DNA from: an uncultured Lachnospiraceae bacterium
GTDB taxonomy: Bacteria > Bacillota > Clostridia > Lachnospirales > Lachnospiraceae
NCBI GenBank assembly: GCA_946414885.1
Contig: CAMKQH010000015.1
Coordinates: 32,881 to 96,880 of the forward strand
DNA: 64,000 nucleotides
Direction of reading: 5' to 3'
Shown in pieces: positions 12,280 to 53,157 of the stretch; within the stretch, counting starts at the first letter, position 1; each line of letters begins with the position of its first letter. The notes below the pieces were generated by a model. It was not told the DNA's origin. It ran no database searches and was given only the letters and a program-made list of their open reading frames with translations. The position numbers and the translations under genes are program-made.

Positions 12280-12304
12280 GTGACAGTAGACACGTCCCCG
12301 TGGC
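12280..12304 (-). repeat. REP-like ~25-bp repeat, copy 1
   Basis: GTGACAGTAGACACGTCCCCGTGGC, the reverse complement of consensus GTCACGGGGACGTGTCTACTGACAC with 2 mismatches. Confidence 0.75.
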
Positions 12305-49133: not shown

Positions 49134-49514
49134 TTATTCATGTAATCCGATTGGTTGCCCGTCGGGATCCCTGAAGAACACATACCTGCATCCAAGCCAG
49201 TTCGTACAGATGGGGCTATACTCGATCTCAAACCCAGCCTCCTTCATGGCCTCCCGAACCTCTTCCATGCTGCTCTCCAGCTGATCCACCTTGAACGCCA
49301 GATTTCTCAAGCCTAAATTCTCAGGATTGTCCGCCCGCTCCGGGTGCTTCGGGTCCACAAACAGCATTAGCGTCATCCCATGCCCATCCATCATCACGAC
49401 CTCGTCATACTCCCGCATGGTCCGAAACGTCTCCTCAAAGCCGAGCACCTTGTAAAAGGCCACTGACTTCTCTTCCGATACTATGATCGCCAAATGTCGT
49501 AATCCTTTTATCAT
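49134..49514 (-). CDS. VOC (glyoxalase/bleomycin-resistance) family protein
   Basis: GLRHLAIIV, GLRNLAFKV, FFRDPDGQPIGLHE. Confidence 0.85.
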   Translation of the reverse strand: MIKGLRHLAIIVSEEKSVAFYKVLGFEETFRTMREYDEVVMMDGHGMTLMLFVDPKHPERADNPENLGLRNLAFKVDQLESSMEEVREAMKEAGFEIEYSPICTNWLGCRYVFFRDPDGQPIGLHE

Positions 49515-49703
49515 CGTTACGCCCTCACCTTTTCCTTGCCCGCCATCTCTTTTGTAAAACCCCATAATAGCCCACTATCCCATAATCTTAAAAATTTTAA
49601 CACAATTTTAATAAATCGTCTAGATTTTTTCTTCTCTTTACAGAAATTTAATCAATTCTTGCCCGCCCCTCCCATTTCTTGCCCTCCCCGCCCCATCGAT
49701 CGA

Positions 49704-49728
49704 GTCTCCGGGACGTGTCTACTGACAT
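49704..49728 (+). repeat. REP-like repeat, copy 2
   Basis: GTCTCCGGGACGTGTCTACTGACAT. Confidence 0.7.
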
Positions 49729-49814
49729 GTTTTCCTGCCGGAAAACGCGTCAGGTAGAAAGGAATTCAGCTAATCCAAAGAAATCGCCTGGCCAAGATGA
49801 AAAGCAAAATGAAA

Positions 49815-49850
49815 AGCAGGGGCTGGAATCTGACGATTCCAGCCCCTGCT
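49815..49850 (-). terminator. terminator of the hicA-hicB-secB-like operon
   Basis: perfect 16-bp stem AGCAGGGGCTGGAATC-TGAC-GATTCCAGCCCCTGCT, T-rich tail on the minus strand. Confidence 0.85.
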
Positions 49851-49892: not shown

Positions 49893-50327
49893 TTAATTCG
49901 GTCTTAATTCGCTTTTAACAAGAAATGGATTCAACATAAGCGGTTGTTGACCATAAGAAGACGTAATCTGCCCAATGAGTAACGAAACTCGGCTCATTAA
50001 AGGTGCTGTAATAAAATCTCCATTCTTAATAAGTTCTTCTGCAATGTTAATTTTGGTCCAATCATGTTCTGACCGTCGCTCATTAAACCTCAGATTTGCC
50101 CCAAAGGAGATACTCAAATTGAACATCATCTCTGGCGAAAACACTAGATTCCTAGTTAGAATTACTTTAACGCCGTTTTCATTTACTGACGCCTTTACAT
50201 TATCCTGACATGTCAATGCAATGTCTCGTATTTCATTGTCATTAGTAACATCTATTCTTTTATAAATTATACTATCTAAATAAATCTCCTGCTCTGGTCG
50301 AAAATACTCAACTAAATTCGCTATCAT
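49893..50327 (-). CDS. SecB-like chaperone (third gene of a putative TAC system)
   Basis: beta-rich N-terminal half, C-terminal helix followed by SRVSLLIGQITSSYGQQPLMLNP, like the SecB '..ISxLT.xG.pPL.LP' end; overlaps the hicB stop. Confidence 0.65.
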   Translation of the reverse strand: MIANLVEYFRPEQEIYLDSIIYKRIDVTNDNEIRDIALTCQDNVKASVNENGVKVILTRNLVFSPEMMFNLSISFGANLRFNERRSEHDWTKINIAEELIKNGDFITAPLMSRVSLLIGQITSSYGQQPLMLNPFLVKSELRPN

Positions 50328-50827
50328 ATCGATTTACTCTCCGTCTTACTATAGTTAAGCTTAACTCTATTGTAATCAATAATATTTGATCCGCTTACTG
50401 TCGTCTCATTGTCATATCTTGCGTTCCTCATTTGAATCGTCTCCGTAAGGTTTTTAACACTTTCAACAAATGCACGTGTCTGGCTTGAATCATTATCAAG
50501 GTATTCCTTAATTGCTTTTTCTACCTCTGAGTTAAGAGAGTGACCGTTCTTATCTGCAAATAAGGCAATTCCCCTGTGTAGTTCAGGTGAAATACGCACA
50601 TTAAAAGTTCCTTTATACTCCTTTTCCGGCTCTTTTCCAACCTCCTTACAAAAATCAAGATAATCATCCACTGCGGCGTGAAATTCTTCCTCAACACAAG
50701 AAATATCCTCTGCTTCAAATTCAACAAAATCATTAATGCCTTCTATCTTGCCTCTCAATGACATCGAATCAGCGTCAAACTCTATCTTAGTGTGATACCC
50801 CTTATATTCCATCACATTCATCATCAT
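50324..50827 (-). CDS. hicB: HicB-family antitoxin with a ~55-aa C-terminal extension
   Basis: MEYKGY..RGKIEGIND..EFHAAVDDYL..YKGTFNVRISPELH..SLNSEV. Confidence 0.9.
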   Translation of the reverse strand: MMMNVMEYKGYHTKIEFDADSMSLRGKIEGINDFVEFEAEDISCVEEEFHAAVDDYLDFCKEVGKEPEKEYKGTFNVRISPELHRGIALFADKNGHSLNSEVEKAIKEYLDNDSSQTRAFVESVKNLTETIQMRNARYDNETTVSGSNIIDYNRVKLNYSKTESKSI

Positions 50828-51102
50828 TATAATTCACCTATCTCTCTTAAATAATCCGCCAAATATCTAATTGCACCCATACTCATCACATCCCCGGGAT
50901 GTGGTTTATGTAGCATTATTATACGCTGATCACTTTCCCTATAGAACTTTACTCTTGATCCCGATGTTTTTCCTTTATTAGACTCTTCAAATCCAAGTTG
51001 CGAAAGTACACGCTTTGCCTCAGAATATGTATAATCTTTAGGGTATAAAAGTAGCCGTTCTTTAGCTTTTTCGAATGTACTCATGCAGAAGTCCCCTTGC
51101 AA
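50827..51102 (-). CDS. hicA: HicA-family mRNA interferase toxin
   Basis: GFEESNKGKTSGSRVKF..MLHKPHPG. Confidence 0.9.
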   Translation of the reverse strand: MQGDFCMSTFEKAKERLLLYPKDYTYSEAKRVLSQLGFEESNKGKTSGSRVKFYRESDQRIIMLHKPHPGDVMSMGAIRYLADYLREIGEL

Positions 51103-51156
51103 CTACTCTATAGTTGCATTCTATCATATTTAGATTATTTGTCAATAATCTAAATT
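51098..51156 (-). promoter_or_regulatory. hicA promoter with two operator palindromes
   Basis: TTGACA(51146-41)-17-TAGAAT(51123-18); IR ATTTAGATTATT/AATAATCTAAAT around the -35; IR TGCAACTA/TAGTTGCA downstream of the -10. Confidence 0.8.
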
Positions 51157-51170
51157 TTGCTTATTATATC

Positions 51171-52178
51171 TTAATCTATTACAACATCCTTCGCATACGC
51201 ATAAGAAATAATCTCTCCCGTCTTTGTCGACGAATATCCTTTCTCCTTGTGCGAATACTCTGATATTTCAGCAGAGCCAAAATCCTTAAACTTCACGTAC
51301 ACACGCTCTAGCACGGCCATTTCTTGCTCCGAAAGAATCCCTTCCTCAATGTCTCTTTCAGGAATTACCTCGTGCTTCTCATAGCCATTTTCATAAAACA
51401 CTTCTATTCGAATAATATGATCTGCTTCCATATTTCCAAGCAAGATATCCGCTTTATCTGGCACCGGTCCATATGGAAGATGAGCATACGTTAATCCAGA
51501 CATTGAAATCCCGTTTTCTTTATAAAACACCATGTCTGAATAATTTAGCAGCTTCATCAATTTCGTTTTGTATAACCCGGCACATTTATTCGAAAAGAAC
51601 AGAACCATGGCACATATCTTTTCATAATCAAAACTTTTAAAACCATTTTCGATACATGGCATCTTAGAAAAATACAGATTCAAAAGTTTTATCCCTCTCC
51701 GCCGTTTTTCCTTATGTTCTAATTCGTCAATCGCCTTCAACAGTTGCGCTTTTAGTTTTTCATCTATTGTAGCTTCATTGTTGGCAAGATAAGCGCGCAT
51801 GTTCTCAGGATCTCGCAAAAATATCAACATGCTGTTATGTGCTTTGTCTTGAATGGAACCATTTTCATATCTGAAAATGGTTTTGTCTCCCCAATTCAAA
51901 AGCTTTGCAAGCCCTCGCTGGCTTAAGCCATACTGCTCTCTAATATCCTTAATCTCTTTAGGCATAAGAAGGTTGTGCTTCTGTCTGTACTCATTGTAAG
52001 CGTTCAACAGCGTTTTCGAATCAAGTTCCTCACAAAATAATTCTTCGCCGCAATCTGCGCAGGTCAGGATCTGAGCATCAACCGTAACGTCCTCACCACA
52101 AATTTTGAAAGTCTCTTTTCTGGTAACAATCTTTGTTTCAACATCTTTATCACATCTTTCGCAATATTTTCTCATCAT
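51171..52178 (-). CDS. MqsA-type Zn-finger-HTH fused to a Panacea/SocA (DUF4065) antitoxin domain
   Basis: CERC..CADCGEE zinc finger, EIKDIREQYGLSQRGLAKLLNWGDKTIFRYENG HTH, KTKLMKLLNYSD..YAHLPYGPVP Panacea motif. Confidence 0.85.
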   Translation of the reverse strand: MMRKYCERCDKDVETKIVTRKETFKICGEDVTVDAQILTCADCGEELFCEELDSKTLLNAYNEYRQKHNLLMPKEIKDIREQYGLSQRGLAKLLNWGDKTIFRYENGSIQDKAHNSMLIFLRDPENMRAYLANNEATIDEKLKAQLLKAIDELEHKEKRRRGIKLLNLYFSKMPCIENGFKSFDYEKICAMVLFFSNKCAGLYKTKLMKLLNYSDMVFYKENGISMSGLTYAHLPYGPVPDKADILLGNMEADHIIRIEVFYENGYEKHEVIPERDIEEGILSEQEMAVLERVYVKFKDFGSAEISEYSHKEKGYSSTKTGEIISYAYAKDVVID

Positions 52179-52197: not shown

Positions 52198-52278
52198 CTA
52201 AAAATCTCCCGCAACTATTAAGTTTTTCGCTTTTGTGAGAAATAAAGAAATGTCCGAGATGCTCGCCCTATTACACAC
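52198..52278 (-). pseudogene. N-terminal remnant (26 aa) of an MqsR-like toxin
   Basis: GAGGAGG RBS then GTG; VCNRASISDISLFLTKAKNLIVAGDF*; toxin position directly upstream of the MqsA-type antitoxin. Confidence 0.55.
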
Positions 52279-52301
52279 GCAACCACCTCCTCATACTTAA
52301 C

Positions 52302-52329
52302 ATTATACCATCGCATCCAATCTTGTCAA
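52302..52329 (-). promoter_or_regulatory. consensus sigmaA promoter of the MqsR/MqsA-Panacea operon
   Basis: TTGACA(52329-24)-16-TATAAT(52307-02) with extended TG. Confidence 0.8.
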
Positions 52330-52362
52330 CAAAAATGCGGTCATTTGACCGCATTTTTGTTG
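52327..52362. terminator. bidirectional terminator
   Basis: CAACAAAAATGCGGTCA-TT-TGACCGCATTTTTGTTG. Confidence 0.8.
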
Positions 52363-52363
52363 C

Positions 52364-52388
52364 GTCACGGGGACTTGTCTACTGACAC
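52364..52388 (+). repeat. REP-like repeat, copy 3
   Basis: GTCACGGGGACTTGTCTACTGACAC. Confidence 0.8.
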
Positions 52389-52495
52389 GTTTCATTTTTT
52401 AGGAAAGACTGCACTCTTTTATGCAGAGCTCACCAAGGATCTCGTAACTGCCTATGACGAAGAATAACGTGCCAATTCAAAAAGGCGCAGGAATC

Positions 52496-52876
52496 TTACG
52501 ACTCCTGCGCCTTTCTTTTTGCTTCCATATCCTCCCGCACTTCGATCTTCTGTCCGTCCGGATCCCATAGATAGCAATACCTCTCGCCGCTCACGTCCCG
52601 CATTCTGTGTGCGTCGGTGTAGTTGCGGACAATGCTTTCGTAATCGTCCACGACGATGGAGAAATAGCGGATTCCCAGAGGCTCCGGAATGCGATCCCGC
52701 TTGGGGCGGAAACGATCCACGAGAAATTCCAGGACGATGCCGTATCCCTCCAAAACTACTTCGGTGGTGTCAAGCCGTTTGCGACGGCTCGTTTCCCGAA
52801 AGCCCAAGTCCAAATAAAAGTTGATCGTCTTGTCCGACGATGCGATGAGCGAAATGTGATGTAATCCCGTTGCCAT
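52496..52876 (-). CDS. VOC family protein (second)
   Basis: GLHHISLIAS, GIRYFSIVV, YLWDPDGQKIEVRE; homologous to 49134-49514. Confidence 0.8.
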   Translation of the reverse strand: MATGLHHISLIASSDKTINFYLDLGFRETSRRKRLDTTEVVLEGYGIVLEFLVDRFRPKRDRIPEPLGIRYFSIVVDDYESIVRNYTDAHRMRDVSGERYCYLWDPDGQKIEVREDMEAKRKAQES

Positions 52877-53157
52877 AATGTCTGCTCCTTTCCTTTTGTA
52901 TTTTTCGGCGCAGGCATTTTTATGCCTCAAACCTCTTGGATTTTATCACATTTTCATGCAGTTTTCTACCCATCTTGCATTTTTCGCCCTTGTTCCATGC
53001 AGTATTCGCCCTAAAGTGGGTCACGATATCTTTCTTTATCGTGCGGAACTTCTTCTTTTGGAGGCAGTTTGCGTAGCACGTTGTTGCTTGTATGTCAGAC
53101 CGCCGTCAGATATACTTTTACTATCATTTATATCTTCAAGGGAGGGAAATAACGATC

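Follow-up and report, generated by a model that had tools for sequence, protein, structure and literature searches.

A 2013 survey with the SecB family model PF02556 catalogued toxin-antitoxin-chaperone (TAC) systems, built on HigBA or MqsRA pairs and more rarely on HicAB pairs (Sala 2013, PMC3581621). The HicAB-based TAC of Methylomonas methanica was shown to be functional, and the chaperone-addiction (ChAD) element of its antitoxin (HicB residues 119-159) was transferable (Bordes 2016, PMC5105189). Experimental removal of the ChAD renders TAC antitoxins chaperone-independent (PMC5105189; bioRxiv 10.1101/2024.02.24.581848), and the published ChADs vary in sequence and lack order, with aromatic residues at intervals as anchors (bioRxiv 10.1101/2024.02.24.581848). 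Here we analyzed the hicA-hicB-ORF3 locus of an uncultured Lachnospiraceae bacterium (assembly GCA_946414885.1, contig CAMKQH010000015.1). The locus lies within a stretch of 64,000 nucleotides, here referred to as the window, and all positions are those of the window. In our view this locus is probably a tripartite HicAB-type TAC operon. Its novelty is a sequence-cryptic chaperone within a known TAC class, not a new architecture.

The locus consists of three minus-strand open reading frames (ORFs), which fill positions 49893-51084:

50827-51084, minus strand: hicA, 85 amino acids from ATG (PF07927, E 8.4e-8, 32.6 bits against a cut-off of 27)
50324-50827, minus strand: hicB, 167 amino acids (PF05534 at residues 56-106, E 1.2e-19; weak Arc-like ribbon-helix-helix matches)
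50327-50491, minus strand: hicB codons 113-167, candidate ChAD tail of about 55 amino acids after the ribbon-helix-helix (RHH) domain
49893-50327, minus strand: ORF3, 144 amino acids, gene of a predicted SecB-fold chaperone from an unannotated family of Clostridia

Both PF07927 and PF05534 scored above their curated cut-offs, which places the pair in the HicAB family of toxin-antitoxin (TA) systems of type II. Toxin, antitoxin and putative chaperone follow each other in one operon. The original prediction, made from the letters of the sequence, had hicA abutting hicB and hicB overlapping the third gene. Both junctions were found as described: the hicA stop codon shares one base with the hicB ATG (1-nt overlap), and the hicB stop overlaps the ORF3 start by 4 nt (ATGA).

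Joint loss of the HicB tail and the chaperone gene

The lengths of the best 120 HicB homologues were bimodally distributed, with 91 proteins of 150-175 amino acids and 24 of 110-135. The close relatives were either long (158-173 amino acids) with a chaperone gene next to them or short (110-127 amino acids) without one. The short proteins shared 70-79% identity with the HicB of the window up to residue ~112 and stopped a few residues past the RHH domain. A C-terminal antitoxin extension is therefore absent from the two-component homologues. No chaperone gene was present in the short-HicB loci L038/39 and L040/41, and all three informative look-ups of short HicBs gave the same result. Another candidate short HicB (P0310) turned out to be a frameshifted long form with the chaperone present and was not counted as a loss.

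Two natural alleles document the transition from the long to the short form. Compared with locus L001, locus L042 carries an in-frame deletion of 528 bp in a shared LacI...MatE context with flanks that are 99.5% identical. This deletion extends from HicB codon ~117 through chaperone codon ~128 and leaves the HicB core joined to the final few chaperone residues, an arrangement which was also found in the protein P0261. In L025/L026 a deletion of 359 bp relative to L016 removes the region from HicB codon ~114 through chaperone codon ~59. The hicA gene and the hicB core are intact in both cases. Hence, tail and chaperone were removed jointly in two independent natural deletions. In a tree based on the HicB core, short forms were scattered among long ones; the root state was long and at most 19 changes were needed.

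Such a joint loss would be tolerated because an antitoxin without its ChAD becomes chaperone-independent. The co-loss pattern is what addiction predicts, namely that the chaperone can safely be lost only together with the tail. From this comparison we infer that HicB depends on the chaperone via its tail.

The predicted SecB fold of the third gene product

Searches with ORF3 against Pfam, NCBIfam and PADLOC returned nothing meaningful. PF02556 did not match ORF3 at E values up to 1, and the Pfam SecB domain was absent from all 105 scanned relatives. Sequence and profile searches against the PDB with ORF3 and its alignments gave chance-level matches only. The relatives of ORF3 comprised 56 close clusters at 90% identity and approximately 220 representatives at 50% identity.

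The fold was more informative. An AlphaFold2 (AF2) model of the monomer, built from an alignment of 34 sequences, reached a predicted local distance difference test (pLDDT) score of 87.7 and a predicted template modelling (pTM) score of 0.81; it consists of four long antiparallel strands followed by helices. When this model was compared with the PDB by Foldseek, Rv1957 of M. tuberculosis (5MTW) ranked first (E 2e-5, template modelling (TM) score 0.66-0.71), followed by E. coli SecB (1QYN, TM ~0.6). The 5MTW crystal contains Rv1957, which is a SecB-like chaperone of a TAC system, together with the HigA1 ChAD peptide. Next after the SecB structures came two functionally uncharacterised Streptococcus proteins, which passed E 1e-3 with TM scores of 0.36-0.41, and all remaining matches had E values of 1e-2 or worse. 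Among viral models (BFVD), the fold matches included phage proteins annotated as SecB.

Additionally, the 105-member ORF3 family was aligned by hhalign with clostridial proteins of the PF02556 type, for which 15 PF02556-positive ORFs from 399 sampled genomes of the same class as the host were used. The comparison gave a probability of 85% and an E value of 6e-6 over 116 columns. It pairs the stretch R113-x-S-L-L-I-x-Q-I-T-S-S-x-G-Q-x-P with the SecB motif PY-x-R-x-x-I-x-x-I-T-x-x-x-G-x-x-P-l-x-L (...SRvSLLIgQITSSyGqqPLmLnP against PY.R..I..iT...G..Pl.L.P). A SecB-like third gene with a C-terminal signature had been predicted for this locus, and both parts of that prediction are supported, by the Foldseek ranking and by the hhalign pairing respectively; the aligned motif is presumably the signature that had been noticed.

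By predicted fold and by profile, ORF3 is a remote SecB homologue that lies outside PF02556; the homology is present at these two levels and absent at the Pfam level. An assignment of ORF3 as an export SecB was rejected, as neither the protein nor any other product of its own genome matches PF02556. This genome (97% complete) contains one copy of the ORF3 family, and 19 of the 399 sampled genomes of the class have any PF02556 match.

The HicB antitoxin and its tail

HicB is composed of a beta-beta-beta-alpha part (residues ~1-63), an RHH domain (~73-112) and the tail (113-167). A profile of 17 HicB orthologues matched CopG/omega RHH repressors in the PDB over residues 66-120. In the AF2 model the RHH strand is placed at 76-78 and the helices at 81-94 and 98-114, and are followed by a helix of low confidence at 117-133 and by an end without structure. 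With the RHH domain ending near residue 112, the tail is approximately 55 amino acids long, just the extension beyond the DNA-binding domain that the original prediction had proposed.

The tail has pLDDT values of 41-53 and is far more variable than the core (mean column entropy 2.2 against 0.88 bits). Within it an amphipathic stretch is kept (L120, I124, L127 and L131, spaced i, i+4, i+7, i+11), as are aromatic residues at 137-139, 152 (F/Y) and 159 (Y in the window), within the motifs N-I-I-P-F and K-x-x-Y; positions 152 and 159 are each aromatic in 93% of sequences. These features are consistent with the published ChADs, a fit that is not diagnostic.

Recurrence of the triad and spread of the chaperone family

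The order of the three genes and their overlaps recurred in about 20 distinct loci with differing genomic contexts. In look-ups seeded with the chaperone, the order HicA (85)-HicB (158-173)-chaperone (137-150 amino acids) was constant. The contexts comprised a chromosomal LacI/MatE region, the lysis end of a prophage, a conjugative element beside relaxase genes and integrase-linked sites, and the records included Lachnospiraceae, Butyrivibrio, Acetatifactor, Hominifimenecus and Eubacterium aggregans. To avoid bias, three long HicB clusters were picked without reference to the chaperone; in 10 of the 10 places listed for them a gene of the chaperone family overlaps and follows hicB (hidden Markov model E 1e-54 to 1e-59).

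One HicB cluster covered 354 blocks of the collection, and close relatives were common in human-gut metagenomes. The ORF3 family itself is rare, occurring in 2 of 201 genomes of the host's family (one genome per genus) and in 10 of 399 genomes of the class. This sparse spread fits a cargo of mobile TA or defence genes. Distant members of the family pair with two other HicAB subtypes (HicB of 180-183 amino acids). The PF02556-type SecB-like proteins of the same class adjoin MqsA-like, HigA-like or HEPN-type partners, not HicAB.

Further members of the distant or solitary set (loci L027-L029, about 3989-4405, and L092-L096; proteins P0132, P0138, P0159 and P0166) were observed in other settings. 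Solitary genes follow a peptidase M20 gene in Christensenella-type genomes, and five genomes sampled from a single genus, 0.8-1.0 Mb in size, have lone genes for proteins of 129-131 amino acids. Some distant proteins carry a low-complexity or disordered N-terminal extension (MALFGKK...). In L012 (2572-3315), HicA and HicB form a single ORF of 247 amino acids upstream of the chaperone (P0219, 44 member sequences), which reflects either a genuine fusion of toxin and antitoxin or a slip of one base where the two genes meet (TAATG).

Tentatively, and with more doubt than conviction, we propose that the SecB-fold family may be more than a TA accessory: a SecB-like lineage in some Gram-positives thought to lack SecB, from which at least three HicAB subtypes would have recruited addiction chaperones.

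The HicA toxin

The toxin belongs to the "long HicA" subfamily, which has an N-terminal helix extension. The motifs TSGSR and HKPH (residues 40-44 and 59-62) were invariant across 13 orthologues sharing 42-79% identity, and this includes both H59 and H62. A search of the HicA profile against solved structures matched no HicA, and hhalign gave no usable alignment of the HicA alignment with one canonical short HicA. An alternative hicA of 91 amino acids starting at TTG 51102 was rejected, as this start falls inside the operator-like palindrome described below and all homologues begin with MSK or MST. A motif pattern similar to that of the window (GSGR...HEPHP) was seen in the HicA of coliphage mEp234.

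Operon structure and regulatory sites

One promoter and one strong terminator bracket hicA-hicB-ORF3 on the minus strand:

51118-51145, minus strand: sigma-70-type promoter, -35 box TTGACA (51145-51140) and TG-extended -10 box TAGAAT (51123-51118)
51098-51118, strand not applicable: operator-like palindrome TGCAACTA-tagag-TAGTTGCA, immediately downstream of the -10 box
51092-51097, minus strand: Shine-Dalgarno-like AGGGGA, 7 nt before the hicA ATG, as read from the sequence
49805-49850, minus strand: intrinsic terminator (hairpin 49850-49815) with a 16-bp stem (10 GC), a 4-nt loop and a T run

The promoter-like site at 51145-51118 has 11 of 12 consensus matches plus the TG, and TTGACA and a -10 box were found at the equivalent position in other triad loci. 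The terminator hairpin starts 43 nt after the ORF3 stop; a single terminator closing the triad had been predicted, and this strong hairpin with its T run agrees.

Of the 18 triad loci examined, 16 have a palindrome of the form TGCAACT(A)-N-(T)AGTTGCA, located 32-52 nt ahead of the hicA start codon (ATG). It is degenerate in L031 and L032, where the core AACTA/TAGTT is kept. The surrounding DNA differs between the loci and the position of the palindrome is constant. TGCAACTA-N5-TAGTTGCA is a likely candidate operator of the HicB RHH dimer, by which the operon would be autoregulated.

A second palindrome, TTAGATTATT-gaca-AATAATCTAA, with perfect 10-bp arms is located at 51130-51153, its midpoint lying on the -35 box that precedes hicA. 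Among the triad loci compared it was found in the window only. A role as a second operator is conceivable, for instance one bound by the MqsA-type helix-turn-helix (HTH) protein of the neighbouring gene.

Proposed mechanism and alternative explanations

The mechanism outlined here is drawn by analogy to the tested systems Mtb-HigBA1/SecB(TA), Mmet-HicAB/SecB(TA) and E. coli HigBAC. The HicB tail would act as a chaperone-addiction element that makes HicB aggregation-prone or unstable when the chaperone is absent. Its patches (L120-L131, Y138, Y152 and Y159) would be held in the peptide grooves of a SecB-like oligomer, and chaperone-bound HicB would sequester HicA and repress the operon at TGCAACTA-N5-TAGTTGCA. 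If the chaperone were lost together with the islet, or titrated by unfolded proteins or abundant phage structural proteins, HicB would fail, and the freed HicA would attack RNA and stop growth. This would result in addiction or in a stabilised islet, and abortive infection is a further possibility.

Several observations weigh against the interpretation as a TAC. ORF3 fails the Pfam SecB model, and its homology consists of the fold (TM ~0.6-0.7 at 12-15% identity) and the hhalign probability of 85%. AF2 modelled HicB with a low overall confidence (pLDDT 59), and the proposed link between tail and chaperone is drawn from comparative evidence only. The figure of 19 losses is an upper bound, as some "short" HicBs in the databases are assembly artefacts. 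Furthermore, the more distant ORF3-family members are solitary, and a SecB-like fold alone therefore does not imply a TA role. Finally, in a comparison with His-bearing long HicAs, the column of the canonical G-S-H catalytic His aligns with Ser43/Arg44 of the window's HicA, a mapping that comes from a MAFFT alignment alone. The activity of HicA is consequently not certain, because the canonical catalytic His seems to be lacking; the active site may have been remodelled in the long-HicA subfamily.

These points feed into the other explanations that we considered. The SecB-fold protein might be a third partner of the pair other than the chaperone of the tail, such as a second antitoxin or adaptor in direct contact with HicA, a co-repressor or a stand-alone sensor that targets the complex. 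The solitary family members unrelated to TA genes would be in line with this, and the predicted tail helix (117-133) could serve another role. However, the two independent deletions take tail and chaperone together and start exactly at the RHH/tail boundary, the tail is found only where the chaperone is, and the closest structural match of ORF3 is a chaperone crystallised with a ChAD peptide, all of which makes such a partner unlikely. We give even less credit to a selfish or decaying remnant without toxin activity, in which the catalytic His is lost and the genes are merely co-inherited. Here, the Ser43/Arg44 position fits, as does TA decay within the same islet, where the adjacent MqsR toxin gene has been deleted and its antitoxin orphaned. 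Against it, the invariance of TSGSR and HKPH at 42-79% orthologue identity points to purifying selection on a remodelled site, the coliphage mEp234 HicA has the same type of motif, all three genes are intact, and promoter, operator and overlaps are conserved.

That ORF3 is an unrelated passenger downstream of an ordinary two-gene HicAB would agree with its missing sequence-family annotation, but synteny effectively refutes it, and we regard it as extremely improbable: ORF3 overlaps hicB by ATGA, the sole terminator follows it, the gene order is kept in about 20 loci of unrelated contexts, and it was deleted together with the tail. We therefore favour the tripartite TAC operon. The original prediction of a HicAB-based TAC in a clostridial host is strengthened by the SecB fold of ORF3 and by a tail that is tied to the chaperone and was co-deleted with it twice. 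As to its description as a less-studied variant, HicAB-TACs as such have already been named and validated (PMC3581621; PMC5105189), and what this locus adds is a member whose chaperone is cryptic in sequence.

Neighbouring islet and a coliphage parallel

Upstream of the triad (51171-52178, minus strand) lies a gene for a protein of 335 amino acids in which a Panacea/SocA domain (PF13274, E 1e-20) is fused to an MqsA-type zinc-ribbon/HTH antitoxin (TIGR03830, E 6e-28). This gene is preceded by a perfect promoter of its own (52329-52302). Among 201 genomes of the host family, 21 encode a protein of this type. In relatives with 60-67% identity an MqsR toxin gene (PF15723) precedes it. About 313 bp of this gene are missing in the window, with a remnant at ~52230-52362, and the MqsA-Panacea protein is therefore an orphan antitoxin.

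The motif GGGACNTGTCTACTGACA brackets this 2.7-kb TA islet in direct orientation (49704-49732 and 52364-52392). Further copies in the window are located at 12281, 57148, 57391 and 57658. With at most one mismatch, the genome contains 54 copies, which often form inverted pairs with a spacing of 250-300 bp; the reversed control gave 0. The 29-nt direct repeats were for this reason rejected as att-like ends of the islet, and the motif is regarded as an element resembling repetitive extragenic palindromes or miniature inverted-repeat transposable elements (REP/MITE-like). The islet is also flanked by similar ORFs of 143/144 amino acids at 49134-49565 and 52496-52930, both on the minus strand. The former encodes a glyoxalase/VOC protein (PF00903); the latter had no Pfam match at E up to 1e-4 and is similar by eye only. 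In the short-HicB locus L041 a glyoxalase gene of 143 amino acids is located just upstream.

A comparable layout was found in Escherichia phage mEp234 (L065; JQ182732.1, 26874-28004) and also in HK106, with hicA (84 amino acids), hicB (152 amino acids) and an overlapping hypothetical ORF of 141 amino acids. In mEp234 the module sits between cI and N in the immunity region. The 141-amino-acid ORF had no Pfam match and no hhalign match to the ORF3 family, and it was not among the BFVD fold matches. The module may be another cryptic TAC.

Significance

The known picture of the TAC mechanism is unchanged by this locus, and the added value is modest: an unannotated chaperone family and natural co-deletion alleles. 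The locus provides a Gram-positive gut-commensal example of a class whose study has been confined almost wholly to Proteobacteria and Mycobacterium, and it shows that a search for the chaperone by the Pfam SecB model gives too low a count of TAC modules. Natural alleles that pair a full triad with a version lacking both tail and chaperone, in one and the same genomic context, constitute comparative evidence for chaperone addiction outside the laboratory. As close relatives are frequent in human-gut metagenomes and are carried by prophages as well as by conjugative elements, it is worth testing whether they serve in phage defence or in the maintenance of elements in the gut microbiome. If the wider SecB-fold family proposed above were confirmed, some Gram-positive lineages regarded as SecB-less would have SecB-like chaperones of their own.

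Comparison with known systems

The closest described system is the Mmet-TAC of M. methanica MC09 (HicA Metme_2813, HicB Metme_2812 and SecB-TA), which shares the HicAB pair and the order toxin-antitoxin-chaperone with the window. By published description, its HicB has 159 amino acids with the extension at 119-159, compared with 167 amino acids and a tail at 113-167 here. The M. methanica chaperone belongs to the PF02556-defined SecB-like set (PMC3581621), whereas that of the window is invisible to PF02556. Furthermore, M. methanica is a gammaproteobacterium with its own SecB, in contrast to a Lachnospiraceae-type Clostridia genome with zero PF02556 matches. The function of the Mmet-TAC was tested experimentally, and the triad of the window is known from sequence and predicted structure.

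The Mtb-TAC (Rv1955-Rv1956-Rv1957, that is HigB1/HigA1/SecB-TA; 5MTW) contains the best structural match of ORF3. Its antitoxin tail is an addiction element, the removal of which leads to chaperone independence. It differs from the window in its HigBA instead of HicAB pair, and Rv1957 and ORF3 are only 12-13% identical. Moreover, a ClpXP degron (Val-Ala) terminates the ChAD of the Mtb system; the HicB tail ends in ...ESKSI.

The tripartite logic is also common to HigBAC of E. coli and CmdTAC (bioRxiv 10.1101/2024.02.24.581848; PMC11618068). Their ChADs have spaced aromatic anchors, and the tail of the window has conserved aromatic residues at 137-139, 152 and 159. The toxins are an RNase (HigB) and an ADP-ribosyltransferase (CmdT) compared with HicA in the window. 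Phage triggers are known for these systems, namely lambda gpV and a capsid protein. The sensing of phage proteins by the SecB-like protein, which the original prediction listed as known for TAC systems, is established for HigBAC and CmdTAC only, and for no HicAB-TAC. The window locus had no match in PADLOC; the only hint of an anti-phage role comes from relatives on prophages, integrase-linked islets and conjugative elements.

E. coli SecB (1QYN) and the predicted structure of ORF3 share a fold of a four-stranded sheet and a long helix (TM ~0.6), and the C-terminal helix-loop motif of the SecB family aligns with that of ORF3 in hhalign. Unlike an export SecB, ORF3 has no PF02556 match, is linked in an operon to a TA pair and occurs in a host class of the Gram-positive type. 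The two-gene HicAB relatives (P0301 and P0264; loci L038 and L040), finally, resemble the window in HicA and in the HicB core (residues 1-112), both 70-79% identical. In these relatives, unlike in the window, HicB ends right after the RHH domain and the third gene is absent.

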